Origin: an uncultured Clostridia bacterium
Lineage (GTDB): Bacteria; Bacillota; Clostridia; TANB77; CAG-508
Direction of reading: 5' to 3'
Assembly (NCBI GenBank): GCA_947630065.1
Contig: CANRGE010000003.1
Span: 17,792-81,791 of the forward strand
Length of the DNA: 64,000 nt
Made by a program: the position numbers and the translations under genes. Below are positions 4,778-59,180 of the stretch, one piece after another; position 1 is the stretch's first letter, and each line of letters opens with the position of its first letter. Below the pieces are notes generated by a model. It made no database searches. It was not told the origin of the DNA and saw nothing but the letters and a program-made list of their open reading frames with translations.

Positions 4778-4948
4778 GAACAAATCTCGCTTCGCGAGAC
4801 CTTTTCTCTACATCTTAAAGTTTGCTATCTAAATTCAAGGTCTCAAAGAAGCGCAAAGATTTGTTGACGCGAAAATTTACGAAGTAAATTTTCTGTGCAA
4901 TGTTATTTTTTATATAATAGGAAAGTAGAACTTTCCTATTATATAAAA
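4778..4948 (+). repeat. dispersed ~170-bp intergenic repeat, copy A
   Basis: Begins GAACAAATCTCGCTTCGCGAGACC and ends ATAATAGGAAAGTAGAACTTTCCTATTATATAAAA. It is near-identical to 9 other copies in the window. Confidence 0.9.
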
Positions 4949-5124
4949 TTGATTTTTCGAAACCTTTTTATGCATTTAATACTTATTAATCTTATTAAGG
5001 TTTCAGAAACTAAAATACTATATGTATAAAATTTACCACCACATTATATTTCATGTGGTGGCTTTCTTTTAATATTTATTCTAAAAATTTTTTTAAGAAT
5101 TTTCCTGTATAACTTTGTTCATTT

Positions 5125-7899
5125 CTACATATTTGTTCTGGGCTTCCAACAGCAATTACTTGTCCGACCTTTGTCTCCTCCTTCTGGTCCTAAATCTATT
5201 ATATAATCTGCTGTTTTTATTAAATCTAAATTGTGTTCTATTACTATAATAGAGTTCCCTGTATCTACAAGCCTTTGTAATATGTCTACAAGTCTATGAA
5301 CATCTGCTGTGTGTAATCCAGTTGTAGGTTCATCTAATATATATAATGTTTTACCTGTTGCTTTTTTAGATAATTCTGTTGCAAGTTTTACACGTTGTGC
5401 TTCTCCTCCAGATAATGTTGTTGATGGTTGTCCTAATTTTATATATCCAAGTCCTACATCATATAAAGTTTGTATTTTAGCTTTTATTCGTGGTATATTT
5501 TCAAAAAATACTAATGCTTCTTCTACTGTCATATCTAATACATCTGAAATTGTTTTTCCTTTATATTTTACTTCTAAAGTTTCTCTATTATATCTTTTTC
5601 CTTTACATACTTCACAAGGTACATATATATCTGGTAAAAAGTGCATTTCTATTCTTAGTATTCCATCACCAGAACATGCTTCACATCTTCCTCCTGGAAC
5701 ATTAAAACTAAATCTTCCTTTTTCATATCCTCTAAGTTTTGCTTCATTTGTTGTTGCAAATATTTCTCTAATTATATCAAATACTCCCGTGTATGTTGCT
5801 GGATTTGAACGAGGTGTTCTTCCTATTGGAGATTGATCTATATTTATTATTTTGTCAATATTTTCTAATCCTTTAACTTCTTCGCATTTTCCCGGTTTTT
5901 CATTTGAGCCATTTAAATCTCTTGCAATTGTTTTATATAATATTTCGTTTACAAGTGTACTTTTACCTGAACCTGATACTCCTGTAACACATGTAAATAC
6001 TCCTAATGGAAATTTAACATTTATATTTTTTAAATTATTTTCACTTGCTTTTATTACTTCTATACTTTTTCCATTAGATTTTCTTCTTTTTTTAGGTACT
6101 GGTATTTTTTTCTTTCCACTTAAATATTGTCCTGTTATAGATTCTGGAACATGTTTTATTTCTTCTGCTGTTCCTTGTGCCATAACATTTCCACCATGCA
6201 CTCCAGCACCTGGTCCAATATCTATAATTTCATCTGCTGCGTACATAGTATCTTCATCATGTTCAACAACTAATACAGTATTTCCTAAGTCTCTTAATTT
6301 TTTTAGTGTTGTTATTAATCTATCATTATCTCTTTGATGCAATCCTATACTTGGTTCATCTAGTATATACAAAACTCCTGTTAATCCAGAACCTATTTGT
6401 GTAGCAAGTCTTATACGTTGTGCTTCTCCTCCTGATAATGTTCCACTTGCTCTTGATAATGTTAAATATTCCAAACCTACATCAATTAAAAATTGTAATC
6501 TTTTATTAAGTTCTTTTATAATTTGATCTGCTATAAGGCTTTCTTTTTTTGTTAATTGTAATGAATTTATATAATCTTTTATTTTTACAATAGACATTTC
6601 TGTTAGTTCATTTATATTTTTTGTTCCTACTCTTACTGCAAGACTTTCTTCTTTTAATCTTGCTCCATGACATGTATTACAAGGGCTTTCGCTCATATAC
6701 ATTTCATAAAAGTCTCTCATTCCTTGAGATTTGGTTTCATTATGACGTCTTTCTAGTGTAGGTATTACACCTTCAAATGGACTTCTAAATTTTCTTATAC
6801 CTGCTGCTGTTTGATATTCAAAATCTATTTCCTCTGTTCCTGTTCCATATAAAATTTTATCTAGAAAATCACGTGGTAATTTTTTTATTGGTTTTTTTAT
6901 GTCTACTCCATAGTGTTTACCAATGCTTTCGAAGTACATTTTAGCCATAGTATCACCTTTTTTCATGGTACTAGCTCCAAAGGCTTTTACTCCATCATAT
7001 AATGTCTTATTTTTGTCTGGTATTATTAAATCTTCATCCATTTTCATTAAATACCCAATTCCTGTACATGTTGGACAAGCTCCAAAAGGATTATTAAAAG
7101 AAAACATTCTTGGAGTTAATTCTTCAAAACTTATTCCACAATCTGGGCATGCAAAATTTGTACTAAATAGTTTTTCTTCTTTTCCTACTACATCAATTAA
7201 TACTAAATTGTCAGCATTTTTTAATGCAGTTTCTATTGATTCTGCAAGTCTATTGGTAATTTCTTCTTTTATTACTAATCTATCTACTATTATTTCAACA
7301 TTGTGTTTCTTTTTTCTATCTATTGTTAAATCATCTGTTAATTCTACTGTTTCACCGTCTATTCTTGCTCTTACAAAACCTTCTTTAGCATATTTTTCAA
7401 AAAGTTTTGTAAATTCTCCTTTTCTTCCTCTTATAATAGGTGCTAAAACTTGTATTCTTGTTCCTTCTTCTAATTCCATTATATTGTCTACTATTTGGTC
7501 TACAGTTTGCTTTTCTATTTTTTTGCCACATTTTGGACAATATGGAATACCAATTCTTGCATACATTAAACGTATATAATCATATATTTCTGTTACTGTT
7601 CCTACTGTAGAACGCGGATTTTTAGATGTCGTTTTTTGGTCTATAGATATTGCAGGAGATAATCCTTCTATTGATTCTACTTCTGGTTTTTCCATTAGTC
7701 CTAAAAATTGTCTTGCATAGCTAGATAAACTTTCTACATATCTTCGTTGTCCTTCTGCATATAATGTATCAAATGCAAGAGACGATTTTCCAGAACCTGA
7801 TAAACCTGTTATTACTACTAATTTATCTCTTGGTATTTCTATATTTATATTTTTTAAGTTATGTTCTTTTGCACCTTTTATTATTATTTTATCATTCAT
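5125..7899 (-). CDS. uvrA: excinuclease ABC subunit A; C-terminal ~30 aa displaced by an apparent +1 frameshift near 5165
   Basis: The 924-aa product has an N-terminal ABC P-loop ([12 protein letters not shown]), zinc-finger cysteines, a second ABC module and LSGGEAQR signatures. The listed ORF ends [21 protein letters not shown]. The adjacent frame gives the canonical [30 protein letters not shown], stopping at about 5077. Confidence 0.9.
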
Positions 7900-8108
7900 G
7901 TTTAACTACATTCCTTTCATCCCAAAAAATAATTTTCCTATATATTTTTTAACAAAAACAACATAATTATATATGTCACATTTTTGTTTGTATCCCCTCA
8001 AAAAATTTGTTATATAATTTCCTTATTATACAACGAATTTATTATACTATATATTGTGCATTTAAACAAGTGTTTGTTGATATAAAATTTTAAAACTTTT
8101 ATATTATT

Positions 8109-8280
8109 GAACAAATCTCGCTTCGCGAGACCTTTTGTCTACATCTTAAAGTTTGCTATCTAAATTCAAGGTCTCAAAGAAACGTAAAGATTTGTTGACG
8201 CGAAAATTTACAAAGTAAATTTTCTGTGCAATGTTATTTTTTATATAATAGGCATGTAGAACTTTCCTATTATATAAAAA
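8109..8280 (+). repeat. dispersed ~170-bp intergenic repeat, copy B
   Basis: Same consensus. The terminal hairpin variant is GGCATGTAGAACTTTCC. Confidence 0.9.
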
Positions 8281-8284
8281 GAAT

Positions 8285-8326: not shown

Positions 8327-8333
8327 CTCTGCC

Positions 8334-12006: not shown

Positions 12007-12957
12007 TCAATTATTCTTACTTATTTCCTTTATATATTCACTATCTTCTATTTTTGATATAGCAAAACATCTCTTTCCTAAATCTTTTAATGACGCTCCT
12101 ATGTGGTACAAATCTTTATTATCAATTATCATAAATCTATCATGGAATTTATTTGTATATGCTAACTTTAATGTTGGATATTGTTTATTAAATTTTTGTA
12201 TATCTAATTTTCTTATATTACAATTTTGAGATGTTAATATTACAACTTCTACATCTTTATTTTTCTTTGCTAACATCTTTAAAATACTATCATCTATGTA
12301 ATTATCTATAATTAAAATTTTATTTTCGGCAGTTTTTATAATATCTACAATTACACTATAAGCATCATATATTTGTCCATCAAAAAATATTTTTTGTTTG
12401 AATTCTTCTTGTTTTTCTTTTTGTAGTTCATCAAAAATTTTTTCAAAGTTCTTTTCATGATTTGAGAGTTTTCTATCTTGATCTATTAACTTACATTCTA
12501 TATTTGATAATCTATTAAATATTTGCCCATTAGATAATATAAATTTTCTCATCTCTACAAAAGCATTGATAATATTAATGCTTACTTGAATCGCTATTTC
12601 ATTTTTTAATAGTCCTGAAAGCATTGCTATTCCTTGCTCAGTAAATACATATGGAATGTATTTTCTATGTTGTCCTCTAGCTTTTTTGTTTAAGGTCGCA
12701 ATTTGCGACCTTAAAGATTCTACTTCGTATTCTGTCAATTTAAAGCAAAAATCTTCTGGAAATCTATCTTGGTTTCTTCTAACAGTTTCATTTATTCTTT
12801 TTGTATCATAGTTATACAGCATAGCAACATCACTATCCAACATTACTTGTTTTCCTCTTATTGTATAGATTAAACTCTTGATATTTTCTGTATCATAATT
12901 TTGTATATTGGTTTTATTATTAGTTACAATTACATTATTTTCTTCTATAAAAATCAC
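12007..12957 (-). CDS. ORF6N-domain (phage antirepressor-like DNA-binding) protein
   Basis: The motif KYIPYVFTEQGIAMLSGLLKNEIA matches the ORF6N/KilA-C-type domain. The tandem paralog immediately upstream is 75-85% identical. Confidence 0.55.
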   Translation of the reverse strand: MIFIEENNVIVTNNKTNIQNYDTENIKSLIYTIRGKQVMLDSDVAMLYNYDTKRINETVRRNQDRFPEDFCFKLTEYEVESLRSQIATLNKKARGQHRKYIPYVFTEQGIAMLSGLLKNEIAIQVSINIINAFVEMRKFILSNGQIFNRLSNIECKLIDQDRKLSNHEKNFEKIFDELQKEKQEEFKQKIFFDGQIYDAYSVIVDIIKTAENKILIIDNYIDDSILKMLAKKNKDVEVVILTSQNCNIRKLDIQKFNKQYPTLKLAYTNKFHDRFMIIDNKDLYHIGASLKDLGKRCFAISKIEDSEYIKEISKNN

Positions 12958-12990
12958 TCCTTTTATTGTACTGTTTACAGAAATTCGTTT

Positions 12991-13956
12991 TTAACTCATT
13001 AATAATATTTTTGATTCTATTTTTTCAATATATTCTTCATCTTCTATTCTAGAAACTGCAAAACATTTCTTTCCTAGGTCTTTTAATGAAGCTCCTATGT
13101 GGTACAAATCTTTACTATCAATTATCATAAATCTATCATGGAATTTATTTGTATATGCTAACTTTAATGTTGAATATTGTTTATTAAATTTTTGTATATC
13201 CAATTTTCTTATATTACAATTTTGAGATGTTAATATTACAACTTCTACATCTTTATTTTTCTTTGCTAACATTTTCAAAATGCTATCATCTATGTAATTA
13301 TCTATTATTAAAATTTTATTTTCGGCAGTTTTTATAATATCTATTATTAGGCTATATGCATCATAAATTTGCCCATTCAAAAATATTTTCTGTTTAAATT
13401 CTTCTTGTTTCTCTTTTTGTAGTTCATCAAAAACAAGATTGAATTTTTCATCATGATTTAGTAATCTTGCATCTTGTTCTAACAATTTACTTTTTATAGT
13501 ATTTATGTCTTGAAATACTTGTCCATTTAATGCTATAAACCTCCTCATTTCAACAAAAGCATTCATAATACTAATGCTTACTTGGACCGCTATTTCGTTT
13601 TTTAATAATCCCGAAAGCATTGCTATTCCTTGTTCTGTAAATACATAAGGCGTATATTTTCTGTGCTGTCCTCTACCATTTTTGTTTAAGGTTGCAATTT
13701 GCAACCTTAAAGATTTTGTTTATTCTTCTGATAATTGAAAACAAAAATTTTCTGGAAATCTATCTTTATTTCTCCTTACAGCAAGGTTAATATACTTTGT
13801 TTCATAATGATATAACATAGCAACATCACTATCTAACATTACTTGTTTTCCTCTTATTGTATAAATTAAATTCTTAATATTTTCTGTATCATAATTTTGT
13901 ATATTGGTTTTATTATTAGTTACAATTACATTATTTTCTTGTTCTATAATAATCAC
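12991..13956 (-). pseudogene. ORF6N-domain paralog interrupted by an in-frame TAA (split into 13720-13956 and 12991-13704)
   Basis: Alignment to 12007-12957: ...CFKLTEYEVESLRSQIATLNKKARGQ versus ...CFQLSEE*TKSLRLQIATLNKNGRGQ. This is a same-length substitution that creates a stop just upstream of the conserved palindrome. Confidence 0.5.
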
Positions 13957-14065
13957 TCCTTTTATTGTGCTAATTATAGAACATATGTTTTCATTTTGTC
14001 AATAATATTTTTATATTTTCTTTTATTTCTATAAAAATATAATGTTTTATTGAAAATGATATATA

Positions 14066-14237
14066 GAACAAATCTCGCTTCGCAAGACCTTTTCTCTACA
14101 TCTTAAAGTTTGCTATCTAAATTCAAGGTCTCAAAGAAGCGTAAAGATTTGTTGACGCGAAAATTTACAAAGTAAATTTTCTGTGCAATGTTATTTTTTA
14201 TATAATAGGAAAGTAGAACTTTCCTATTATATAAAAA
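14066..14237 (+). repeat. dispersed ~170-bp intergenic repeat, copy C
   Basis: Same consensus with a CGCAAGACC variant. It is followed at 14238-14265 by the hairpin GAAGTCGCAATTGCGACTTC plus a T-run. Confidence 0.9.
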
Positions 14238-14272
14238 GAAGTCGCAATTGCGACTTCTTTTTATGTAATGCT

Positions 14273-28928: not shown

Positions 28929-28943
28929 TACTTCTCCCTTCTA

Positions 28944-29238: not shown

Positions 29239-29239
29239 C

Positions 29240-43039: not shown

Positions 43040-43090
43040 TCCTTAATCACATGGAACTTGCTTGCAAGTTCTAGTGTGTTAGAACTTCAA
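43040..43090 (+). promoter_or_regulatory. oriT of the MobV relaxase (pMV158-like)
   Basis: Overlapping inverted repeats GAACTTGCTTGCAAGTTC and GTTCTAGTGTGTTAGAAC containing TAGTGTG/TTA, about 100 bp upstream of mob. The pMV158 nic sequence is GTGTG/TT. The predicted nick lies between 43078 and 43079. Confidence 0.5.
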
Positions 43091-43176
43091 AAAAGTTTAT
43101 TTAAGAAAAATCAAAAGGGGTATTTATTTTTTAGTAAGCCTACAAAGGCTATCTTATAAAAAAGGAATATTTAAAA

Positions 43177-44127: not shown

Positions 44128-44240
44128 ATATAGCACATATAAGAATTATATTATATTCTTATATGTGCTTATTGTTACTGTTTTTCTTCCATTTTATATA
44201 TTGCTTGCTATTGTTATTCTTTAATAAATAGAATTTATCA

Positions 44241-45209
<969 letters not shown>

Positions 45210-45301
45210 TTGTAATCGCTCCTTTTTTATTCTTATGGTTTAATTATATATTTCTATTATTTTATTGTCAATTGTATTAATTAAAATAATAACTTCATTT
45301 T

Positions 45302-45496
45302 TTATTCTAGCATATTTTGTATATATTCTAGTTGCTCTTTAGTTAATCTATTATTTACAACAGCTAATCTTAATAAAGCTTTTATATTTTCTTTTTTCAT
45401 TACTTTATCATTTCCATTTGCTTTCAATTTCACATATTCTACTACTTCATCAAATATATAAAATGGAACATTAAAATCTAAATTTAATCTATTCAT
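45302..45496 (-). CDS. hypothetical protein (64 aa)
   Basis: ORF only, on the element. Confidence 0.3.
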   Translation of the reverse strand: MNRLNLDFNVPFYIFDEVVEYVKLKANGNDKVMKKENIKALLRLAVVNNRLTKEQLEYIQNMLE

Positions 45497-45626
45497 ATTA
45501 TTATTTCTTCCTACAACTTTTTATCATATTTAGCCTTAATAGACTGTACTCTATAATTTTAGCATATAAATAATTATAAAATCAATACTATAAATATAAA
45601 TTATTTTTGGTAAAGGAAATTTTGAT

Positions 45627-45866
45627 ATGAATTTTAATAAATATAATAATAACTATAATATCATAAGCAAAAAATTAAAAGAGTTTAGAACAAAACGCAA
45701 TATTTCTCAAGAACAACTTAGTAATAAATTATCTTTATTAGGTATTACATTATATCAATCTGACATATTCAAAATAGAAAATAATCAAAGGACTGTACGA
45801 GATTTTGAATTATGGGGTATTACAAAAGTTTTAGATATTAAAGCTGAAGAACTATTTAAACCTTAA
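45627..45866 (+). CDS. XRE-family HTH regulator (79 aa)
   Basis: KLKEFRTKRNISQEQLSNKLSLLGITLYQSDIFKIENNQR is HTH_3. Confidence 0.7.
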   Translation: MNFNKYNNNYNIISKKLKEFRTKRNISQEQLSNKLSLLGITLYQSDIFKIENNQRTVRDFELWGITKVLDIKAEELFKP

Positions 45867-45885
45867 TTTATAGGTTAAATAGTTC

Positions 45886-46057
45886 TTTTTATACAATAGG
45901 AAAGTTCTACTTTCCTATTATATAAAAAATAACATTGCACAGAAAATTTACTTTGTAAATTTTCGCGTCAACAAATCTTTACGCTTCTTTGAGACCTTGA
46001 ATTTAGATAGCAAACTTTAAGATGTAGAGAAAAGGTCTCGCGAAGCGAGATTTGTTC
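45886..46057 (-). repeat. dispersed ~170-bp intergenic repeat, copy G (reverse orientation, inside the mobile element)
   Basis: Reverse complement of the consensus from TATACAATAGGAAAGTTCTACTTTCC through GGTCTCGCGAAGCGAGATTTGTTC. Confidence 0.9.
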
Positions 46058-46060
46058 TAT

Positions 46061-46765
46061 TTACACATTAAATATATCTAAATATAAAGCATTTTGCTTA
46101 TTTAATATTTCTTGTTCATTTTCATTTAACTTTAATTTTTCAATCATTTCATTTGTAAATTCTAAATTCTTCTTTGAAAAATAACATTTTCTTAAACTTG
46201 GCTCACACTTTGCATTTGTTCCAAAATAACCACCTAACATTAAACCATCTATACCATTGCAAATATTTATTTCAAGCACTGAAACATCTACACGACTACT
46301 TGTTGGCTTATAATTCTCCATTACAACAAATACAATTTCATCATTACATATTAAGTAACCCTCTGAGTATATTCTTTTATCGTGATAATCTACAAATTTT
46401 GCTTTACAAATATTTTGTTTTTGTTCTAGTTCTAATATATACTTATCTGGTGCAAATTTATTAGTTCTAAAATTATATGCGTTAAAATACACATATAGCT
46501 TATCTACTTTAAAAGGATTTCTTGATCTATTATTTTGAGTTGTTCTATTTGTATCATTTCCATATAAATCTGCTTCATATATTCCTAATTCTTCACAAAT
46601 TATACTTATATCTCTTACATCTGGTAAAATTTCGCCTTTTTCATATCTACTTATAGTAGCTTTGTTTTTATTAAGCACTGTAGCTATATTTTCTTGGCTC
46701 AAACCTTTTTGAATTCTATAATTTTTTAGTCTTTCTCCAAAATCTTTACTATTAAATTCAGCCAT
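46061..46765 (-). CDS. XRE-family HTH regulator with the same C-terminal domain as 15240-15956
   Basis: HTH LSQENIATVLNKNKATISRYEKG. The C-terminal ...GGYFGTNAKCEPSLRKCYFSKKNL is alignable with the chromosomal paralog. Confidence 0.7.
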   Translation of the reverse strand: MAEFNSKDFGERLKNYRIQKGLSQENIATVLNKNKATISRYEKGEILPDVRDISIICEELGIYEADLYGNDTNRTTQNNRSRNPFKVDKLYVYFNAYNFRTNKFAPDKYILELEQKQNICKAKFVDYHDKRIYSEGYLICNDEIVFVVMENYKPTSSRVDVSVLEINICNGIDGLMLGGYFGTNAKCEPSLRKCYFSKKNLEFTNEMIEKLKLNENEQEILNKQNALYLDIFNV

Positions 46766-47482
46766 AATAGCACCCCCTATTAACTATTTTTATTATACTA
46801 TTCATTTATAAATTAAGCAATATTAAATCGTTATAAGCCTTTATATATTTGATATTTAAAGCTTTTTATAGTATAATATATTTAATACCTATTTTTTGGT
46901 AAGTCTTTATATAATTTACCTAAGCGTTAGCTTAATTGTAACATAAATTGTTATTTTTAAGCTACGCAAGTGGCTTAAATTATATAGAATCTCCTCTTAT
47001 TTGGACTTTCTAATTTATGTGCAATAAAAAATAGAGACTATTAGAAAGGAGAAATAAGAATGATACTATCAAAACACAAAATTATAGCATTCCCTCGGTG
47101 GTAGTGGAGGTTGTTAAGACTAAAGGAAAGAGATTTTTATTCTCTTTCCTTTTTATATTATTTTTGTGTTGCATTTAATGCAACATTTTATACTTTTTTA
47201 TATTTCTAATTATTTTTCTCACTTATTTTACCTAAATTTAACTAAAAAAATATATTTATACCCTAAAAATTGCATATTACGCAACTTTCGTTGCATTGTG
47301 TGCAATTTTACTATCTTTTGCTTTGTTTACATAACAATACTATAATATAATTGTAAGCTACTAGAACGATTATATGTATAAAAATTCATTTCACTTTTTA
47401 CTTCTAAATACTCATTTCTTTCTAAGCTTATTAGTTCGAACAAATTAAAGATTTCTAGAAATCTAATATTTTAATAGGAGAT

Positions 47483-47839
47483 TTGCCTATGAGAAATTTT
47501 AAAAATATTAGACCTACAAATGAAAAAATCAATAAGGAACTAGAAAATGTTTTTTATCAAAATCAATTAAATGACTTAGATAACATTGATGTTGATATTA
47601 ATCATCTAGAAAAAATCTTCACAAATGAAACTTATTATTTAGCAATGAAAATCGTTCCATTGCTTGAAAGAAAAGTGTTATATCTTGCATATGTTGAGAA
47701 TGTTCGATTAAACGATATTTGCAGAAGATTAAAATTACCAAAGAAACAAGTTATTGTACTAAAGAATAAAGCAATAATACATTTTAAGAATAATTTAAAC
47801 ACTCTTACTAAAGCTACAGGTGGTGGCAAAAATGTTTAA
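47483..47839 (+). CDS. sigma-70 region-4-like regulator (Tn916 Orf7-like)
   Basis: 118 aa. LYLAYVENVRLNDICRRLKLPKKQVIVLKNKAIIHFKNNL resembles a sigma region 4 HTH. It sits upstream of xis-int. Confidence 0.5.
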   Translation: MPMRNFKNIRPTNEKINKELENVFYQNQLNDLDNIDVDINHLEKIFTNETYYLAMKIVPLLERKVLYLAYVENVRLNDICRRLKLPKKQVIVLKNKAIIHFKNNLNTLTKATGGGKNV

Positions 47840-48389
47840 ACATAAAAAGAAAGAAAAAAATACTTTAGCAAAAAACATTACCACTAAAACACAACATAAT
47901 TTTTCAATAAGAGTTCTTTATAAGAAAACAAATAAAGTACCAGAAGTAAAAATAATACCCAATATAAAAAGATTAAAAAAAGCAATAATAAAAAATTCAC
48001 TAGATATTATTCCATACGAAAATGTATTTATAATTTGTTCTAATCAAAAATTAAATATTAATTCATCTCCTAATATACTTCTACCTTTAAAAACCATTTA
48101 TGGAGATTTTATCTTAGTAAAAATTAATAGAAAAGAACGAGAATTTGAAAGTCTATCACAAGAAGACATTATGTGGTATACACAAGACTTAATAAACAAA
48201 AGTAATATTCAAAATACTTTAAGCGAAACAAAAAGACCTAGTGTTAAAAACTTTATGGACTTTTACGAAAGAGATTTTGAAAAAGGAAATAATGGTAAAA
48301 CAGTAAACTATGAAACTACAATAATAAACTCTTTAACAACAATAGAAATGACATTAATAAAATTATTGAAAGGGAAAAATAAAAAATGA
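47820..48389 (+). CDS. hypothetical protein (189 aa)
   Basis: ORF overlapping its neighbours by a few bp (operon-like). Confidence 0.4.
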   Translation: MVAKMFKHKKKEKNTLAKNITTKTQHNFSIRVLYKKTNKVPEVKIIPNIKRLKKAIIKNSLDIIPYENVFIICSNQKLNINSSPNILLPLKTIYGDFILVKINRKEREFESLSQEDIMWYTQDLINKSNIQNTLSETKRPSVKNFMDFYERDFEKGNNGKTVNYETTIINSLTTIEMTLIKLLKGKNKK

Positions 48390-48646
48390 ATAATATAAAT
48401 GAAAAAATAATAGATACAAAAGAAGATTCAAACGAACAAATAGTAATAAATTATTTATCAAAAATAAGTAATCCTTTTATTACCCTATCAGTGCAAGATG
48501 TTTCAAAAGATTTACATATAGGAATAAATCAAGCTTATGAATTATTTAAACAAAAAGATTTTCCAACAATATCAATTGGAAAGCGAAAAACTATTACATT
48601 GGCAGCATACCTATTATGGAAAATGAACAAGAAAGGCGGTGTATAG
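48386..48646 (+). CDS. xis: excisionase-like small HTH protein
   Basis: 86 aa, ISVQDVSKDLHIGINQAYELFKQKDFP..., immediately upstream of and overlapping int. Confidence 0.55.
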   Translation: MNNINEKIIDTKEDSNEQIVINYLSKISNPFITLSVQDVSKDLHIGINQAYELFKQKDFPTISIGKRKTITLAAYLLWKMNKKGGV

Positions 48647-49844
48647 TATGCGTCAAAAAGGTCATAGTGAAGGATATGTCTATTATAATAAACAGAGAAA
48701 AACTTTTAACGCACAATATAGTGAATATGACATAAAAACTGGAGATATAAAAAGAAAAACTAAGAGTTTTAAAACCGAAGAAGATGCAAAAAAATATTTA
48801 AGTAGCATTATGTATCAAAAAGAAAATCCTCTTTATATAGAACATAATGGAATACCATTATGTGAAGTAATGAAATCAAATTTAAGATTAAAGTTAGATA
48901 CAAACCAAATTTCAGAAGCACAATTTACTAGAATAGAAGACACAATCGTAAAAATAGAAAAAAGTGCATTAGGAAAAAAGAATATAGATGAAATACTTTC
49001 AGAAGAATTACAAGCTTATTTAAACTCTTTAAAACATTTAAGTAATTCTACTATAACAAAAGCATATCAACAACTTAATCAAGCATTTAAAATAGCAATA
49101 AATAAAGGGTATTTAGTTAAAAACCCTATGGTAGATGTGATAAAACCAAAAAGTTTGAAAGAAGATAAAATTGTACGAGCTTTAACAGTAGAAGAACAAC
49201 AAGTTTTTACCGATTATCTTTTAAGTACTGATTTAAAAACTTGTAAATACAAAAATGTGTTTCTAATACAAATGTATATGGGCTTAAGGGTAGGCGAAGC
49301 ATTAGCACTTACTACACATGATATAGATTTAAAAAATAAAAAAGTAAATATTCATAGAACACTAACTACTGATGGCAATAGATATGTAGTTATGGGAAAG
49401 AAAACAAAAAATTATGCTGCTAAACGCATATTACCTCTTCCCGACTTTTTATTTCCTTATATTATAGAACAAATGCAAATAGCAAATAATCAAATTAATA
49501 ATGATGAAAAATTATTATTTAAACCCAAATATTCAAATTATACTAAAAGAAAAAATGTAAATTATGAATTGAAACAAATATTTAATAATCTTTTAGGAGT
49601 TACTGACATTACTTCTCATAATTTAAGACATACGTATGGAACTCGTTGTATTGAATCTGGAATGGCTCCTGTCGTTGTTCAAAGATTAATGGGACATAAA
49701 GATATAAGTGTAACTTTAAACACATACACTTCTGTTCTTGATAAATTTAAAGAAAGTGAAATTGATAAAGTTAATCAGTACTATATTAATGAAAACTTAA
49801 TATCTGCCCACAACAATAATATAAAACAATTAGAAGATAGGTAA
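48639..49844 (+). CDS. int: tyrosine-type site-specific integrase
   Basis: C-terminal HNLRHTYGTRCIESGMAPVVVQRLMGHKDISVTLNTYTSV, with the R...HxxR...Y catalytic pattern, and a SAM-like N-terminal domain. Confidence 0.85.
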   Translation: MYSMRQKGHSEGYVYYNKQRKTFNAQYSEYDIKTGDIKRKTKSFKTEEDAKKYLSSIMYQKENPLYIEHNGIPLCEVMKSNLRLKLDTNQISEAQFTRIEDTIVKIEKSALGKKNIDEILSEELQAYLNSLKHLSNSTITKAYQQLNQAFKIAINKGYLVKNPMVDVIKPKSLKEDKIVRALTVEEQQVFTDYLLSTDLKTCKYKNVFLIQMYMGLRVGEALALTTHDIDLKNKKVNIHRTLTTDGNRYVVMGKKTKNYAAKRILPLPDFLFPYIIEQMQIANNQINNDEKLLFKPKYSNYTKRKNVNYELKQIFNNLLGVTDITSHNLRHTYGTRCIESGMAPVVVQRLMGHKDISVTLNTYTSVLDKFKESEIDKVNQYYINENLISAHNNNIKQLEDR

Positions 49845-50221
49845 ACATTTTTTATGCATAAATATAATTAGTTTGAGTTTATACAAACAATTTTTAACAG
49901 TTGTTTGTATAAACTTTTATTTAAAATTTGTAAAATTGCTTATTTTTCAAATATTATTTCAAAAAATCGTGTTTGAGTAGTTATTTTTTAAAAAATGCTC
50001 GAAAGTATATATTCCATGCATATTACAGCCAAAAAAAATTGTTTGAGTAAATGTTTGAAAAAAATAAAAATTAAGAAAAATTATAAAAAATGATAATCAG
50101 TGAAAACTTAACAATATCAACGGTTACAGAGAATTATAGGTAAATTTTGATTTTTTTAAATTAAAGACAAAAAAATACAGCATTTATTTTTGTATAAACG
50201 CTGTATCTCGCTTGTTTCTAA

Positions 50222-50305
50222 GTGGTGCGGATGAAGGGACTTGAACCCCCACGTCGTTGACACTGGTTCCTAAGACCAGCGCGTCTGCCAGTTCCGCCAC
50301 ATCCG
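50222..50305 (-). tRNA. tRNA-Leu (anticodon UAG)
   Basis: rc reads GCGGATGTGGCGGAACTGGCAGACGCGCTGGTCTTAGGAACCAGTGTCAACGACGTGGGGGTTCAAGTCCCTTCATCCGCACCA. The anticodon loop CTTAGGA gives TAG. It has a long variable arm (class II) and an encoded CCA. Confidence 0.85.
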
Positions 50306-50400
50306 CATTTCTATTGACAAGGTATATATTAGCATATTTCAACGTTTACTGTCAATAGAATTTTTACATTTTTTCAATTTTGTTGAGCAATGTTATTATT

Positions 50401-51205: not shown

Positions 51206-51913
51206 TTATTTTTTCTCTGTTATTTTACAATTTTCTTTTTCTTCTATGCAATTTTTAGGTATATCTTTAAAGCTTAAATACCAACTCATTCCATTGCTAT
51301 TTGCTTCAATTTCTTCATTTCGTGCTTGTAAAGCATCAAAGGTTTGTGGCGCTGGTACAATTACTGGTTGATTTGGTATCCAATTTGCTGGTGTTGAACC
51401 TTTAGCACAGTCTGCTATTTGTAATGCTTGAACTATTCTTAAAATTTCTGGAATAAATCTTCCTATATTCATTGGATATATTAAAACAGTTTTTACAACT
51501 CCTTGTGGATCAATAATAAATACATTTCTAACTGTTTCCGTATTACTAACATCATTTGATATCATTCCGTATTTTCTTGCAATTTGTCCATTCCTGTCTG
51601 CTATAATAGGAAATGATACTTTTATTCCTGTTTTACAATATATATCATATATCCATGCAAGATGTGATGCATTACTATCTACACTTAATCCTAATAATTC
51701 TGTATTTAGTTGTTTGAAATATGTATGTGCCTTTGTGAAAGCTATAATCTCTGTTGTACATACAGGGGTAAAGTCTCCCGGATGTGAAAATAGAACCAAC
51801 CATTTTCCTCTGTAATTATTTAATGATATATCTCCCATAGTAGTTTGTGCTTCAAATTCTGGAGCAAGCATACCTATTTTTACATTACCATTCATCATAA
51901 CTTCATAATCCAT
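51206..51913 (-). CDS. peroxiredoxin (AhpC/TSA, Prx6-like)
   Basis: Peroxidatic motif FTPVCTTE and a length of 235 aa. Confidence 0.8.
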   Translation of the reverse strand: MDYEVMMNGNVKIGMLAPEFEAQTTMGDISLNNYRGKWLVLFSHPGDFTPVCTTEIIAFTKAHTYFKQLNTELLGLSVDSNASHLAWIYDIYCKTGIKVSFPIIADRNGQIARKYGMISNDVSNTETVRNVFIIDPQGVVKTVLIYPMNIGRFIPEILRIVQALQIADCAKGSTPANWIPNQPVIVPAPQTFDALQARNEEIEANSNGMSWYLSFKDIPKNCIEEKENCKITEKK

Positions 51914-52094
51914 AAAAAATAACTCCCTTCAAATTTTTGTATATAATATGAAAGGTGTTTAGATGTTGTTACTAATACAAAATTAAGAATTATGAAACTA
52001 AATAATTCATTTATATCCAGTTTTTTATCTTATAAAACTACAGAACTAGAAACTAAGCAATAGTTTCTAGTTCTGTGGTTTTGTACAAAAAAAT

Positions 52095-52550
52095 TTACAT
52101 AAAATCAATTAGAACATCATATCCATATTCTTTTTTTATCTCATTTTTTACCCATTGCTCTCGTTCTTTTGCAGAGTAAAAATCATACTCAGCTCTCATC
52201 CGCATAATCTCTTGATCAGAAATTTTTACAACCCAATTCAAATTGTTTTTCGTAACATACATAATATCGGCTGCATCATATCCTATTTTTTTCAGCACGC
52301 TATATATATGTTCTTCATATTCTGGATTGACCTTACAATAATCAAGTTCAATACAGACTTCTCTAGTCCTTCTCTTATAGTTAATCTTTAAGTCTTTTAT
52401 TAAATTTTCATCAAGCTGCTTTTCTTTCTTAATCCGTCCTACTAAATCGTTTACTTGTGTTAAAACGTTGTTTGTTTCTTCCACTTTTTCAACTAAAGTA
52501 TAAGTTATAGATGTGTTTGTTTCATTTTGACTAATTTCTTTTTTGTACAT
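52095..52550 (-). CDS. hypothetical protein (151 aa)
   Basis: ORF only. Confidence 0.35.
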   Translation of the reverse strand: MYKKEISQNETNTSITYTLVEKVEETNNVLTQVNDLVGRIKKEKQLDENLIKDLKINYKRRTREVCIELDYCKVNPEYEEHIYSVLKKIGYDAADIMYVTKNNLNWVVKISDQEIMRMRAEYDFYSAKEREQWVKNEIKKEYGYDVLIDFM

Positions 52551-52686
52551 ATTTTACCTCCTTCTATAATTACTGTCGTTTACTAGTTATCTATGTCTAT
52601 TCCCATAAGGAAGTTATATAATTAAGTCTAGCATCCACTAGAATATCATTATTATACTATATTTTCATATAATCTGCAATGTTATT

Positions 52687-52775
52687 TATATAATAGGAAA
52701 GTTCTACTTTCCTATTATATAAATAACATTGCACAGAAAATTTACTTTGTAAATTTTCGCGTCAACAAATCTTTA
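52687..52775 (-). repeat. dispersed intergenic repeat, copy H (truncated, lacks the GGTCTC hairpin module)
   Basis: rc consensus from TATATAATAGGAAAGTTCTACTTTCC to GTCAACAAATCTTTA only. Confidence 0.85.
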
Positions 52776-52937: not shown

Positions 52938-53624
52938 ATGTCAAATTACAAGTGGGTTAAAATGAGTGATTCATATGCAGAATTACGGCAAGAAGATTTC
53001 TCTTCACTTCCAAGCTTTGAAGTAAACGCTATAGATCCAATACTTATGAAAAAGCTTGAAGAAAATGGTATTGATCCTTGGCTAGAAGGAGATGGATTCT
53101 TAGAAAAATGTAGATATGTTTTAAGTATGGATAACAGAAAATATGTTACAATTACAGCACCTTTATATGAATATAATCTTGATAGTGGGCAATATGTTTT
53201 GATATCTGAAACATATACAGATGAGGCTATTGACCCTTCTGAATATGAATTAGTAAAGAAAACATATTTCCGTTGCTCAGAAGAAGTGGCTCGTGAACAG
53301 GCAAAAATTTTTGAAGAAGAGTTTATAGAAAAATCCCTTGATGGTATTTCTTCAGTCATAACAATTGCTTCAGATTTTTATCAGGAGCCAAACTACTTTT
53401 ATGAGCACTACATCCCTGAAGGATATATTAAAGTATGTGAAAAGAATTGTCCATTTACCCGTGAGAAACACGATATTGTATTCATTAGACAAATGGATGC
53501 AAAAAGACAAACAATTACAATTAAGCTTCACGACATATATAAGGGGCTTGCTATCGGCACAGGCGGCGAAAATATTAAAAGAATTGCTAAATTAATTAAC
53601 GCCAAAAGAATTAATGTAATTTGA
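52938..53624 (+). CDS. hypothetical protein with a C-terminal KH-like domain
   Basis: Strong SD AAAAGGAGGT. The C-terminal IKLHDIYKGLAIGTGGENIKRIAKLINAKRINVI has a GxxG KH motif. Confidence 0.45.
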   Translation: MSNYKWVKMSDSYAELRQEDFSSLPSFEVNAIDPILMKKLEENGIDPWLEGDGFLEKCRYVLSMDNRKYVTITAPLYEYNLDSGQYVLISETYTDEAIDPSEYELVKKTYFRCSEEVAREQAKIFEEEFIEKSLDGISSVITIASDFYQEPNYFYEHYIPEGYIKVCEKNCPFTREKHDIVFIRQMDAKRQTITIKLHDIYKGLAIGTGGENIKRIAKLINAKRINVI

Positions 53625-53861
53625 TAAGAATTTAGGAGTCTATATAGACTCCTTTTTTCTTTAATATGTATTATTCATCGTAGTTTGTGTTCAAATTCTG
53701 GAACAAGCATACCTATTTTTACATTGTCATTCATATAACTCTTCATAATCCATAAAAAATAACTCCCTTCAAATTTTTGTATAAATATTAAAGGTTATTA
53801 TTTAGTAACAATAAATAATAAATAGAGAAATATTTTATAAAAAATACTTCTCTATTTAAAA

Positions 53862-55518
53862 CTATACATATTGTTGTTTATTTAATACTACAATTCCTGC
53901 AAGAGCTCCTATCATTATAAATATTAATATAGTATCTAAATCATCTTCACCAGTTTTTGGTACATCATCTAATTCTCCTGTTTGATGTTCTTGTGTTTTT
54001 ACTTCTAGTGAATTAATAGCCTCATTAATTGCCTTTTCCATAGTATCTACTTCGCCTTGTTCTAAAATATTTTTACCTCTAACTACTGCTGATATCGCTT
54101 TTTCAACAGCACTAAAGTCTTTATAATCATCTTTATTTAAATTGTTTGCTTTTGCTATTGCTTCATCTACTTTACTATAATCTGCATCTAGATATTCAAG
54201 CGAATTAATTGCATTAATAATTGCTTTTTCCATAGCATCTACTTCATTTTGTTCTGAAATATTTTTATTTTTAACTACTGCATTGATTGCTACCTCAACA
54301 GCACTAAAATCTTTATAATTAGATTTATTCAATTTATTTGCTTTTGCTATTGTTTCATCTACTTTGCTATAATCCGCATCTAGATATTCAAGCGAATTAA
54401 TTGCATCAATAATTGCTTTTTCCATAGCATCTACTTCATTTTGCTCTAAAATATTTTTATTTTTAACTACTGCATTGATTGCTACCTCAACAGCACTAAA
54501 ATCTTTATAATTAGATTTATTCAATTTATTGGCTTTTTCTATTGCTTTATCTACTTTACTATAATCTGCATCAGCATATTTTATTTCATTACCATTTCCT
54601 GCAGCTACTTTAAATACTTCTTTTTTAACTCCATTAGCATTAAAACTTTCAAAACCATTTATTGTAATAACACCATTATTTGTATATACTCCATAATCTC
54701 CAGAAAGAGTAATGTTTCCTCCATTAATAACTATATTTTTTCTTTTTGTTTGACCAGCAGAAATTGCAGGAGTGTCGGCATCTTGAGTACTAAGAACTAC
54801 ATTACCTCCAGTAATAAATACTCCATCTTCTGTATCTTCTGTATATAGGCTATTTCCTGGTACATGAATTGCTGCTGAATTTGCTTTAATATCAACATTT
54901 CCACCAGTAATTTTCACTTGTGATAACACATAAACTCCTGATGCAGTATAATTTTGACTTCCATAAGTCATATTTTCAGTATTAATTTTAAGATTTCCAC
55001 CACTTATATTTAAATTACCATCAACCCAAAATCCACCTGTACTATTTATTGTACCAGATAAAATATTTAAGTTGTTTACATAATGAATTGTATTTCCCAA
55101 ATTATCTCCACCGATTACCACTTATCTCTGTTATTTCAAGATTTAATATGGCATTAGCTTTTCCTTCAAATGTTAGGCTTCCACCCATACCACCATTTGC
55201 ATAAATTACAGATTTTTTTTGTGATTTTAATGTATTTATTCCTTCAAATATAATTTTTATGTTATCTGATTTTTTTAATTTAATACATGGGTTTGAATTA
55301 TTATCATCTTTTACATCAAAGTTTGCATTTCTTAAAGTTAATATTTTGTTTTCATTATCCCATTTCCATCCTTTATCTGCGAGTTTATCTTCTGTTGCAT
55401 GCTCTGTTAAATCCAATGTTGTAGTTTGTGTTTCTATATTTGCTGCTGAAACAACATTTGGTACTAAGAAAAATAGAAATATCATAAATAAAATATTAAA
55501 TATTTTTGATTTAAACAT
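53862..55518 (-). pseudogene. sortase-anchored surface protein (beta-helix-like head, 3 FIVAR-like repeats, VPKTG sorting signal) split by a frameshift at about 55102-55121
   Basis: The signal peptide ORF 55102-55518 (MFKSKIFNILFMIFLFFLVPNVVSA) and ORF 53862-55121 are in different frames and overlap by 20 nt. The C-terminus reads VPKTGEDD plus a TM segment and a short tail. Confidence 0.5.
53990..54560 (-). repeat. about 186-bp tandem coding repeats (~2.8 copies) encoding FIVAR-like 62-aa modules
   Basis: Near-identical DNA units containing CATCTAGATATTCAAGCGAATTAATTGCAT(T/C)AATAATTGCTTTTTCCATAGCATCTAC recur with a period of about 186 bp. Confidence 0.8.
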
Positions 55519-56951: not shown

Positions 56952-58979
56952 CTATAATTTTATATTATCTTTTTTGCTTTCTTTCCAAGTTATTCCATTA
57001 TCATATGATTCAAAATTATAATAAGTTCTTTGTCCATTTTTTAATGTATAAATTTTTGTTTCTAATATTCCATTTTCTAATTTAGGTAAATCTGTTGGAA
57101 TTAAATTATTTTCCAATATATTATCAGATTTAAATGTTATTTTTTCCCAATTTGCTCCTCCATCTTTTGTTATATTTAGTTCTGGATAATTGTCTGTTCC
57201 TGCTCTTTGTGGTTCATACATAAACCCTATTTTTTCATCTGTAAACATAAATTTAGTTCCATAGTGTACACTAAAAAAATCTTTTGTTATTTTGTTCCAT
57301 GTATCTCCACCATCTGTTGTATTATATATAACTACTGCATATGTCCCCATTGCTGGATCTCCCATACATACTGCATGACCTTCTTTTTCGTTTGTAAAGT
57401 GTACATATTCTATTGGTAAATTATTACCTTTTATTGTTATATTATCTTCATTATTTATATTTTTTGAATAATTATAATTGTAATTATATTTGTTTATATA
57501 TTCAAGATTCATTTTTTCTAGTTGTTTTTCTATCAATGTCTTTGAAATATTGAATTCTTGTGGATTTCTATCTTCTTTTAATTCTTGGTATTTTTTGTAT
57601 AGATAATTATTTACTTTTATATAATTTTCGTTGTTTTCTTTAATTTCTTCATTCTCATACAATTTTATAATTTGTGGTACTGCATTAATTCCTAAATTGT
57701 CTACTAAATAATCTACATCTATAGGTCTTACTACTACTTGTGTTAATTTTGTAGCTCTATCTACATTATTTTTTGCTATAACATAATCTATATTTGCAAA
57801 ATTTGCTATTATATACATTGTTGTTCCAATTATAAAATATGTTTTAAGTAAGTTTATTTTTCCTTTTAATATGTATTTTATTGTAGGTATTATCATAATA
57901 ATTTCAGTTGTTAATATAAAATATACCATTAATCTTAAAAATGTATATCCATATTCTTTTTCATATAATCTCATCCTACAAAATGCAGATATTGCTATTA
58001 TTATAGTAAATACACACATACATATATTCATTATTTTTGTATATTTGCTTGAATTTGTCTTATTATTTATGTTTGTTAATATTATAATTACAAAATTTAT
58101 AAATGTAATAAACATTAATTGAAAAAATCCCTGTCTTGCATATGTTGCAAGATTATATCCTAATTTATTTGCTATTCCACCTAAATATGTAAATTGAATT
58201 AAACTAAATATTAAATATACTATATTTATAACTGTAAGAATTGTATTTACTATAGTATTATTTAAATTTAATTTATATTCTTTTTCCTCAGAATTTAACA
58301 TATTATAAGAACTGCCTTTTTCTAATATGTTATAAACTATGCAAATTATATAAATAGTAATTAATATTATACAAATTATTCTAAGTATTATATTCAGAAT
58401 AAATTCACTTGTAAATATAATTTCTAGATTTTTTATAACTCCTGCAAATATGTTTGCAAATATTCCATCTGCTGATGCTAATAGTCCAATTATTACAAAC
58501 AATATTGGCAACGAGCATAGTATTCCTATTCCTATTAATTTGAATTTTTGACCTTTTGTTTCTGAATTATTTGTTTTAAATGCATTTTTTATAATTTTTA
58601 CAGATTTAGGTAAAAACTCTAAAGAACCTATGTAAAGATTTATTGTTTTACGAAATAAGTCTTGGAATTTGAATTTGTCGAATATACTCCATGTTATCAT
58701 TATTACTGTTAATATAGGTATTACAATAATATTTAATGTATTAAAAAATTCATTATCAAAAAATAAATATGTACTGCTTAATAATATTATTGGTATGCTT
58801 AAAAGAAGTGCCTTTTTGTTTTTTATTTTATTAGTTTGTTTTAGCATTTGCATTATTAAAAATACCACTACTAAAGTGAATAATAATACCGATATTCCTA
58901 GCTCTTGCCCATAAAAAAGTATTGAATGTAATACTGCAAGAATAAAACTTCCAATTACTGCTTTTTTCATAAATATCAT
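56952..58979 (-). CDS. polytopic membrane protein with a C-terminal extracellular BNR/Ycf48-like repeat domain
   Basis: About 10 TM helices over 430 aa, followed by BNR-type motifs DGGDTWNK, DGGANWEK and DNGITWKE. Confidence 0.55.
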   Translation of the reverse strand: MIFMKKAVIGSFILAVLHSILFYGQELGISVLLFTLVVVFLIMQMLKQTNKIKNKKALLLSIPIILLSSTYLFFDNEFFNTLNIIVIPILTVIMITWSIFDKFKFQDLFRKTINLYIGSLEFLPKSVKIIKNAFKTNNSETKGQKFKLIGIGILCSLPILFVIIGLLASADGIFANIFAGVIKNLEIIFTSEFILNIILRIICIILITIYIICIVYNILEKGSSYNMLNSEEKEYKLNLNNTIVNTILTVINIVYLIFSLIQFTYLGGIANKLGYNLATYARQGFFQLMFITFINFVIIILTNINNKTNSSKYTKIMNICMCVFTIIIAISAFCRMRLYEKEYGYTFLRLMVYFILTTEIIMIIPTIKYILKGKINLLKTYFIIGTTMYIIANFANIDYVIAKNNVDRATKLTQVVVRPIDVDYLVDNLGINAVPQIIKLYENEEIKENNENYIKVNNYLYKKYQELKEDRNPQEFNISKTLIEKQLEKMNLEYINKYNYNYNYSKNINNEDNITIKGNNLPIEYVHFTNEKEGHAVCMGDPAMGTYAVVIYNTTDGGDTWNKITKDFFSVHYGTKFMFTDEKIGFMYEPQRAGTDNYPELNITKDGGANWEKITFKSDNILENNLIPTDLPKLENGILETKIYTLKNGQRTYYNFESYDNGITWKESKKDNIKL

Positions 58980-59008
58980 CCTTTCATTATAAAATATTTT
59001 TTCAAATG

Positions 59009-59180
59009 GAACAAATCTCGCTTCGCGAGACCTTTTCTCTACATCTTAAAGTTTGCTATCTAAATTCAAGGTCTCAAAGAAGCGTAAAGATTTGTTGACG
59101 CGAAAATTTACAAAGTAAATTTTCTGTGCAATGTTATTTTTTTATATAATAGGAATGTAGAACTTTCCTATTATATAAAA
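59009..59180 (+). repeat. dispersed ~170-bp intergenic repeat, copy I
   Basis: Full consensus between trxA and the membrane protein gene. It abuts the trxA terminator hairpin ATAGGAATGTATAAGTACATTCCTAT. Confidence 0.9.

Follow-up and report, generated by a model that had tools for sequence, protein, structure and literature searches.

A 64,000-nt stretch of DNA from an uncultured Clostridia bacterium (contig CANRGE010000003.1; hereafter the window, whose positions serve as coordinates) contains ten copies of a non-coding repeat unit of ~172 bp that carries no open reading frame (ORF) and folds into three hairpins, which we call H1, H2 and H3. The window has a G+C content of 25.6%, and most of the genes are on its minus strand, which is the leading strand and rich in G. 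Every copy is positioned between ORFs, and the flanking genes are functionally unrelated: they include murD, uvrA, xerD, rsmE, trxA, ORF6N-domain genes and helix-turn-helix (HTH) genes. The family is lineage-restricted and has not been catalogued previously.

Ten copies of a three-hairpin element

The family was recovered in the 64-kb window in three ways: by repeat finding, in a MAFFT alignment and with an nhmmer profile. Seven copies are full, one lacks H3 and belongs to a tandem, one is a half copy, and one consists of the two ends only:

4777-4948, plus strand: full copy (nhmmer, 200 bits), between a convergent small N-rich ORF and uvrA
8108-8281, plus strand: full copy upstream of uvrA (profile, flank and synteny reading), with a conserved terminator hairpin, GGCTGG..CCAGCC, 4 nt from its right end
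14065-14238, plus strand: full copy, used as reference (nhmmer, folds, flanks); its right-end A-run abuts the bidirectional terminator GAAGTCGCAATTGCGACTTC
28943-29069, plus strand: truncated copy (H1 and H2, without H3), the first unit of a tandem with a 128-bp period; the rsmE start codon is 14 nt from its left end
29070-29245, plus strand: full copy, the second tandem unit, with the H3 loop inverted; abuts the xerD terminator
30462-30635, plus strand: full copy with the H3 loop inverted, between spoIIM and xerD; on the right it borders directly on the T-run of a repeat from a second family (30636-30745)
33755-33797, minus strand: ends-only copy, in which the left 23 nt (GAACAAATCTCGCTTCGCGAGAC) are joined to the right 20 nt (CTTTCCTATTATATAAAAAA); rnhA has its stop codon on one side of the copy and its terminator hairpin on the other
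45885-46058, minus strand: full copy within an integrative mobilisable element (profile, Pfam, flanks); an HTH-gene stop codon lies 2 nt from its left end, and its right end abuts the terminator of a convergent small HTH gene
52685-52775, minus strand: half copy, H2 and H3 only (alignment, nhmmer)
59008-59181, plus strand: full copy between the 3' end of trxA and a DUF4153 gene, with the trxA terminator at its right end and the DUF4153 start 28 nt from its left end

A first-pass annotation, made from the sequence alone, had reported copies at essentially these coordinates, ~95% identical to one another, all intergenic and far denser than chance. Each of these points holds. The mean pairwise identity of the window copies is ~96% (95.9%), and a 45-nt core, allowing up to three mismatches, matches nine times in the window and not once in 100 shuffles.

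In the reference copy, H1 spans 14067-14153, H2 14156-14185 and H3 14195-14237, and the folding z-score is about -8 on either strand. H1 is a long interrupted hairpin with a conserved closing helix, AACAAATC/GATTTGTT, and its 5' arm has an alternative fold, the small GC hairpin TCTCGC-TTC-GCGAGA. In H2, a short lower stem accompanies an A/T stem from which a single T bulges, and TGTGCAATGT comes next. H3, which is AT-rich, is an almost perfect 20-bp palindrome of the form T-run...ATAATAGGAAAG-loop-CTTTCCTATTAT...A-run, with arms that read T-run-ATATAATAGGAAAG and CTTTCCTATTATAT-A-run; copies 29070 and 30462 carry the loop in inverted form (GTTCTAC, not GTAGAAC). The element had earlier been described as two modules, a description that is right as far as it goes but incomplete, as folding gives three hairpins.

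The element has no terminal inverted repeats (TIRs): its left end, AGAACAAATCTCGC..., is not complementary to its right end, ...CTTTCCTATTATATAAAAA, and the inverted repeats are all internal, being the arms of H1, H2 and H3. Inspection of the flanks revealed no direct repeat around any full copy, in agreement with the earlier remark that no target-site duplication (TSD) is obvious. The exception is the ends-only copy, which is flanked by an 8-bp direct repeat, AATTCAAC, that is single in the empty orthologous site of L032 (L numbers denote loci or contigs fetched from other genomes).

Modules have been duplicated, lost or joined head-to-tail, giving the 128-bp tandem and the H1-less, H3-less and ends-only forms. 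The tandem consists of copies 28943 and 29070 fused head-to-tail (TRF period 128, 2.0 copies, 94% matches). H3 is missing or deleted in copy 28943, L010 and L006, and the H1-less forms share a start point, (T)AAAGATTTG, in three genomes (window 52775, L011 and L016). L004 and L016 both show the head-to-tail junction CCTAT+3 nt|AGAAC. A vestige of it, with TTCCTAT exactly 3 nt before the left end, is found in L012, L008 and L002, where the number expected by chance is ~0.1, and looser versions occur in L010 and L020.

The H3 palindrome is symmetrically enlarged in the half copy and takes in an inverted post-H2 motif (GCAATGTTAT...ATAACATTGC). The inverted TGCAA motif thereby creates TTGCAG-17 nt-TATAAT, a canonical promoter sequence directed toward a 151-aa gene at 52095-52550. 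A link between the half copy and this gene was rejected: it is unrelated to the 151-aa gene that lies beside a partial copy in L047.

Distribution and placement at terminators

An exact 23-mer scan of 185,579 species genomes (one per species) detected 16 loci in seven metagenome-assembled genomes (MAGs), six of them rabbit 'Lapin' MAGs and one from a Clostridium sp., so that the family extends to seven MAG species beyond the window. Scans of IMG/VR with two patterns returned no matches, a scan of JGI metagenomes returned one chance match inside a coding gene of 47% GC, and BLAST searches of plasmids and phages returned only a 43-nt AT-rich match. Copies from different genomes are 94.9% identical, close to the identity within the window, and their unpaired columns have diverged by only ~4%. 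Proteins encoded beside copies in the MAG species are only 64-74% identical. Together, these values exclude neutral vertical descent of the copies from the common ancestor of the species.

Syntenic loci of 13-23 kb were fetched through homologues of XerD and UvrA. No copy is present in those whose XerD is 84-87% identical to that of the window (three species), nor in those whose UvrA is 89% identical (L048 and L049), and the stretch of the window that matches these copy-free loci holds four to five copies. Four closer relatives thus have no element at four orthologous sites. Empty orthologous sites were found in L032-L040, L048 and L049, and four junctions can be read side by side: xerD-rsmE, spoIIM-xerD, rnhA, and that between a hexapeptide-transferase gene (hexapep) and uvrA. 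The orthologous site of copy 8108-8281, for example, is empty in both L048 and L049. The copy-free relatives and the near-identity of copies across species show that the family was recently gained and amplified in some lineages, namely in several co-resident species of rabbit-gut Clostridia.

The element also coincides with breaks in assemblies. Short-read contigs from five other samples end inside it, contigs L023-L025 begin at the identical copy 28943/rsmE junction, and contigs of other samples end at copy 59008-59181. One contig from another rabbit sample, L020, is 99.98% identical to window positions 29066-34171 and diverges exactly at the left end of copy 29070. Beyond this point (L020:4923-5440), it carries a repeat of the second family and an ABC-transporter gene, not the truncated copy and rsmE of the window (28900-29070). 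The divergence stems either from a genuine rearrangement at the repeat or from a join made wrongly during assembly.

The copies are placed in a regular manner. In 20 of the 24 independent sites, the gene next to the H3 end lies on the opposite strand and has its 3' end toward the element. Read in the sense of the genes, the usual order is gene A, a terminator hairpin, T-run-ATATAAT-H3, H2, H1, ...GATTTGTTCT, and gene B. The 45 nt beyond the right (H3) end fold with a mean of -10.3 kcal/mol, compared with -3.5 for the left flank, and in 16 of 22 copies a hairpin stem, different in sequence at each site, starts 0-1 nt after the A-run. The first-pass annotation had noticed that copies usually abut terminators, and these counts sharpen that observation. 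The position of the stems, directly after the A-run, indicates that the A/T-run of the element acts as, or extends, the U-tract of the terminator. Copy 4777-4948 breaks the rule, having a right end without a directly adjoining hairpin. The ends-only copy after rnhA has the opposite orientation with respect to the gene, yet its A-run end still lies against the foot of the hairpin.

Two junctions illustrate filled and empty states. Downstream of xerD, the relatives have a hairpin, T7, GATATAAT (an extended -10 sequence), 6 nt, a ribosome-binding site (RBS) and rsmE, and the window has a hairpin, T6, GATATAAT, AGGAAAG, two repeat units, GTTCT, an RBS and rsmE. In H3 of copy 29070, a compensated change from T:A to G:C yields TGATATAAT on the gene-sense strand. 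Upstream of uvrA, the hairpin GGCTGG..CCAGCC is followed in the empty allele by AGTTCTATT..., and in the window by ATTC, T5 and the element. The T-run is missing from the empty uvrA allele and therefore comes with the element at this site. At copy 59008, the terminal TTGTTC and a flanking TATAAT, 17 nt apart, form a possible hybrid promoter. The placement of the copies is compatible both with targeting of T-tracts or hairpin feet and with the survival of harmless insertions.

Several features of the neighbouring genes deserve mention. Just upstream of the uvrA -10 sequence (TATAGTATAAT), at ~8061-8078 on the minus strand, lies AACAAACACTTGTTTAAA, a sequence that is kept in both L047 and L048 and that resembles the LexA (SOS) box of Gram-positive bacteria; copy 8108-8281 is located ~30 nt upstream of this box, which stays intact. 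Between uvrA and murD is a small Asn/Lys-rich ORF (4629-4771, plus strand), convergent with uvrA, whose coding DNA is a low-complexity AAT/AAC tract (TRF). L048 and L049 have a 40-aa counterpart at the same place, and L048 has cmk between uvrA and murD, a gene that the window lacks. Positions 12007-13956 contain two adjacent ORF6N-domain (antirepressor-like) paralogues, the second of which is probably a frameshifted pseudogene, judging by its 78-aa and 237-aa ORFs in place of an intact 316-aa ORF. L008 encodes a 310-aa ORF6N homologue with a repeat element at the same relative position.

Older forms, known families and other repeats

Loci from other genomes carry older forms of the element:

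L016:6725-6847: compact 123-nt subfamily
L047:1190-1340 and L047:9641-9800: subfamily B
L004:2224-2300: H2'+H3' relic

All of them have kept both termini (AGAACAAATC and, opposite, CTTTCCTATT) as well as the TGT(G/A)CAATG that follows H2. They also keep H1, H2 and H3 with different stem sequences, in a compensatory manner; these pairings were read from per-variant folds, and the register of H2 shifts between subfamilies in the MAFFT alignment. The arms of H3 change from TATATAAT/ATTATATA to TATCTAAT/ATTAGATA or TCTACAAT/ATTGTAGA, and those of H2 from AAAATTTAC/GTAAATTTT to CAAATTTAT/ATAAATTTG or AAAAATTG/CAATTTTT. The small left hairpin differs again in subfamilies B and compact. In each of the three H2 variants, the lower stem, with its bulged T and a G.T wobble, can pair on the element-sense strand alone. 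Among standard copies, there are 0.26 substitutions per paired column and 0.75 per unpaired column, with two double compensatory changes; the lower rate in stems is seen mostly on terminal branches, and wobble-type changes show no strand asymmetry.

No sigma-70 promoter is conserved across subfamilies on either strand. The candidates TTGACG, TTTACA-17-TGcAATGTT, TTGAAT-15-TAAGAT and the TATAAT of H3 were each rejected, none being kept in subfamilies B or compact. Judged from these comparisons of sequence, the conserved property is pairing, and not the TATAAT box or any promoter.

The possibility that the element belongs to an annotated RNA family, raised in the first-pass annotation, finds no support in Rfam: at gathering thresholds, only tRNA-Leu (50223-50306) passes, and relaxed searches give only chance-level hairpin look-alikes (FuFi-1, ctRNA and miRNA), with FuFi-1 scoring 15.2 and 10.5 bits against a threshold of 59.6. 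Among the classes of repeat suggested earlier, the general one of a dispersed, structured and probably mobile intergenic repeat stands, and the specific ones of a canonical MITE (miniature inverted-repeat transposable element) and a REP/BIME element do not. The element is small, non-coding, multicopy and polymorphic between genomes (172 bp, no ORF, ten copies), as MITEs are, but it lacks the TIRs and the TSD of fixed length that define a canonical one. Nor does it contain the 20-40-nt GTAG/GTGG palindromes in inverted pairs that characterize REP/BIME (REPIN) sequences; its three hairpins differ from one another, and GTAG occurs only in the H3 loop.

A Pfam scan of 40 window ORFs revealed no RAYT/Y1_Tnp or other IS200/IS605 transposase, its only candidates being XerD, an integrase and a Mob_Pre relaxase of the integrative mobilisable element, and a YhcG nuclease. 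No autonomous insertion sequence sharing the ends of the element was found in the window or the fetched loci. The xerD gene, which lies between two copies, was considered as a cognate enzyme of the tyrosine-type REPtron kind proposed earlier. It proves to be an ordinary housekeeping gene, because the spoIIM-xerD-rsmE synteny is kept in element-free relatives. An IS200/IS605-type (PATE-like) element was rejected since the left hairpin, TCTCGC-TTC-GCGAGA, and H3 share no sequence. All copies do end in ...TCTCGCGAAGCGAGATTTGTTC(T) on the gene-sense strand, a terminal palindrome with a GTTC-type tetranucleotide as in IS91, but 1 of 21 independent H3-end flanks is GTTC and none is CTTG, contrary to the target rule at the IS91 ori end. 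Identification of H3, H1 and H2 as dif-like, attC-like and oriT-like sites, respectively, was rejected by inspection. By description, the element shares the properties of the SPRITE/BOX-like class: it is AT-rich, folded, modular or terminator-like, near gene 3' ends and restricted to a cluster of species.

The copy at 45885-46058 lies, as the first-pass annotation had recognized, inside a mobile element. This integrative mobilisable element (IME) extends from 42295 to 50275 and is bounded by 53-bp direct repeats of a tRNA-Leu 3' end (42295-42347 and 50223-50275). Its genes encode a Mob_Pre relaxase (43177-44127), a tyrosine integrase (48639-49844) and HTH regulators, and it is a plausible vehicle for transfer of the copy it carries. 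Upstream of mob, at ~43053-43085, is a likely MobV-type oriT, in which a hairpin, GGAACTTGC-TT-GCAAGTTC, is followed by TAGTGTG/TT.

The second interspersed repeat family has units of ~110-150 nt with the ends AAAAACGAGTTCGACC ... AAACGCCTTGGAGAACGGAATTTTT, and in L047 it has 24-bp TIRs (ATGCAAAATATACATATTTAAAAA). Its copies are the following:

window 30636-30745, minus strand: beside copy 30462
L020:5182-5310
L047:9560-9900
L047:13560-13720

In L047, one of these copies encloses a copy of the main element that belongs to subfamily B. The second family has no Rfam match and no excess RNA folding, and the 110 nt beside copy 30462, tried as a candidate RNA, were identified instead as a member of this family.

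Other repeats in the window do not belong to either family. Perfect (GT)14-16 microsatellites at 2780-2807 and 45148-45179 lie inside an 85%-identical repeat of 200 bp, at the 5' ends of or upstream of paralogous minus-strand genes (1429-2706 and 44241-45209, the latter in the IME), and are candidates for slipped-strand phase variation. Three tandem units of 192 bp, 82-88% identical, occupy 54003-54580 within a 419-aa ORF (53862-55121) that has no Pfam match, and its protein thus has 64-aa repeats. A near-identical 93-bp duplicate of the start and upstream region of ahpC (51206-51913) is found at 51851-51943 and 53690-53783, 1.84 kb apart; the second falls in the gap between 52938-53624 and 53862-55121, and is probably a gene fragment left by rearrangement.

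Origin of the family and its significance

The multiplicity of the element, its restriction to certain lineages, the near-identity of copies across species, the empty sites, the gain and loss of modules, the nesting and the contig breaks all point to a mobile repeat. We estimate a probability of roughly 0.6 that the family is a non-autonomous, trans-mobilised mosaic repeat, of the same broad kind as the pneumococcal BOX, RUP and SPRITE repeats and as REP/BIME. Copies would be mobilised in trans by an enzyme encoded elsewhere. Because TIRs and TSDs are absent and the termini and hairpins are conserved, what this enzyme recognises is probably a hairpin or a folded single strand, and not TIRs. 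The bias in location and orientation could reflect targeting of terminators or T-tracts, the survival of insertions that spare termination, or both. Some copies may supply a long structured leader to genes whose RBS is within 30 nt of the left end, and other side effects on neighbours could include hybrid promoters, extra terminator-like hairpins and rearrangement breakpoints.

BOX, RUP and SPRITE are interspersed repeats of pneumococci (Croucher et al. 2011, PMC3049150). Like them, the element is shorter than 200 bp, AT-rich, non-coding, highly folded and confined to one cluster of species, and like boxA-B-C it is modular, with lone and multiplied modules and with elements that cluster and insert into one another (PMC3049150). 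SPRITE has AAAA/TTTT as its sole 'TIRs' and no demonstrable TSD, resembles a long terminator and occurs preferentially in the vicinity of gene 3' ends (PMC3049150). The present family has no apparent sequence relationship to the three, although the comparison was made by description and not with the published hidden Markov models, and it differs in its three-hairpin architecture and in its host, uncultured Clostridia with 25% GC. Its orientation rule is much stricter (20 of 24 sites), and it is set against a pre-existing terminator hairpin rather than replacing it.

With REP, BIME and REPIN sequences, the family shares an extragenic, hairpin-forming and mosaic character, a frequent position after gene 3' ends, the lack of TSD and TIRs, and a consensus that is stable across related species (PMC2817692). 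Its 172-bp unit is neither a 20-40-nt imperfect palindrome with a 5' GTAG nor an inverted doublet, and the scanned window ORFs include no RAYT. Like the HUH-type transposon ends of IS200/IS605 and IS91, the element is without TIRs and TSD, carries subterminal hairpins on either side, one conserved hairpin having a bulged T, and exists in 5'-truncated and head-to-tail forms. As in IS801 and IS1294, whose terIS cleavage tetranucleotide is GTTC-type, one terminus ends in GTTC on the gene-sense strand (PMC13181058). In IS91, GTTC or CTTG targets flank the ori end (PMC13181058). Unlike these systems, however, the window has no Y1/Y2 transposase among the ORFs scanned, and the two end hairpins are mutually unrelated, which argues against recognition of the IS608 type. 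Correia (NEMIS) and ERIC sequences are also co-transcribed structured repeats that donate promoters, terminators and RNase III sites and mark rearrangement points, but they have clear TIRs and TA target duplications (MITE review PMC10969869), neither of which is seen here.

Several observations weigh against a trans-mobilised repeat. No transposase or mobilising gene was detected in the window or beside any copy. Filled and empty states were found between species but not among near-identical strains, where the informative contigs carry the copy or break there, so that the case for mobility is made from comparison between species only. The insertion point and the right boundary are ambiguous because native T residues are indistinguishable from those of the element. 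The three-fold slower evolution of stems and the long-term retention of three hairpins could mean that copies serve the host, and the bias toward terminators and toward one orientation could have arisen wholly from selection, and not from targeting.

A more specific form of the mobile repeat, which we regard as improbable, involves structure-guided insertion at the foot of a terminator hairpin, in a fixed orientation and with the element bringing its own U-tract, by a type of enzyme not yet linked to such repeats. The hairpin foot, or a stalled or single-stranded state there, would be read by the mobilising mechanism, and the three hairpins, including the bulged T of H2 followed by TGTGCAATGT, would be signals for recognition and cleavage. 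Class C group II introns insert just after the stem-loops of intrinsic terminators, in sense orientation. The element resembles them in lying directly downstream of a terminator hairpin and in being co-oriented with the terminated gene, but with 172 bp it has no ribozyme domains, reverse transcriptase, GUGYG...AY ends or Rfam match. If true, structure-guided insertion would be a miniature DNA counterpart of these introns.

The alternative that survives best, though still unlikely, is that the element is a cis-regulatory cassette serving the host, possibly domesticated from a mobile repeat. After the terminator of gene A, it would supply a U-tract, a TATAAT in the H3 arm and a leader of ~165 nt for gene B. 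In this leader, the H1 3' arm is predicted to form either the long hairpin or the small GC hairpin followed by UUUGUUCU, in a choice reminiscent of terminators and antiterminators, and the 20-bp duplex of H3 could be a target of RNase III. Certain downstream genes (rsmE, one gene in L015 and one in L016) start 14-30 nt after the left end, which leaves no room for a promoter of their own, and hybrid promoters are plausible at 59008 and 52685. Moreover, empty xerD-rsmE sites have a terminator T-run and then the extended -10 sequence TGATATAAT, and the window copy at this site is unique in bearing TGATATAAT. In a scan of the consensus, the small hairpin at the left end is picked out as terminator-like whichever strand is read, and stems evolve three times more slowly than loops. 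However, the TATAAT box is lost in subfamily B (TCTAAT, TACAAT) while its pairing is kept, and no -35/-10 pair is conserved on either strand across subfamilies. The flanking genes share no function, close relatives lack the element at the same junctions, and genes more than 100 nt downstream keep their own promoter (xerD, uvrA and ORF6N).

It is less probable still that copies are multicopy genes for small structured RNAs, which on this model would be transcribed in the element sense, antisense to neighbours, as far as the bidirectional terminator next to the copy. An RNA product would suit the strong fold that is predicted (z about -8), the compensation seen between subfamilies in each of the three hairpins, and the H2 lower stem, which in all three H2 variants can pair on the element-sense strand alone; about half of the flanking hairpins also have a T-run in the element sense. 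Nevertheless, the complementary strand folds equally well, and among standard copies neither strand is preferred by wobble-type changes. A conserved promoter is lacking both upstream and inside, TTGACG and TTTACA being lost in compact and B, and the terminator differs for each copy and belongs to the neighbouring gene. Loss of modules, tandems, nesting and a copy number that breaks assemblies are typical of selfish repeats, and close relatives do without the element.

We give very little weight to the idea that copies are dispersed protein sites (for a recombinase acting on the H3 palindrome, as mimics of a MobV-relaxase oriT, or for a nucleoid or replication factor), even though H3 has two inverted arms of 13-14 bp around a short asymmetric loop that flips between copies, AACAAATC/GATTTGTT, TGTGCAATGT and CTTTCCTATT are conserved in sequence across subfamilies, and H2 shares a 'hairpin then GTGTG' look with the candidate oriT of the IME (~43053-43085): the H3 arms are inside-out relative to dif and have no XerD-arm-like half-site (by inspection against the Bacillus dif consensus), the post-H2 motif is TGTG|CA and not GTGTG|TT, loop inversion in 2 of ~24 copies only is the expected product of template switching at a palindrome, and no cognate gene is linked to the copies.

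The element is a real feature that is worth annotating, and it represents a new family but not a new category, since BOX, RUP, SPRITE, REP/BIME, ERIC and Correia repeats have long been known. Compact folded repeats such as these mould the DNA between genes, cause short-read assemblies to break and act as starting points for rearrangement, and nearby genes can acquire terminators, promoters and long leaders from them. This family is a clean case, being near-identical across species with ~70% protein identity, absent from the junctions of sister species and regularly placed at terminators. Annotating it would explain fragmented MAGs, and the family can serve to trace recent exchange of DNA between uncultured Clostridia of the rabbit gut. 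Its regular, oriented placement next to terminators is its most interesting property, and makes it a tractable system in which to ask whether such placement is achieved by targeting or by selection.

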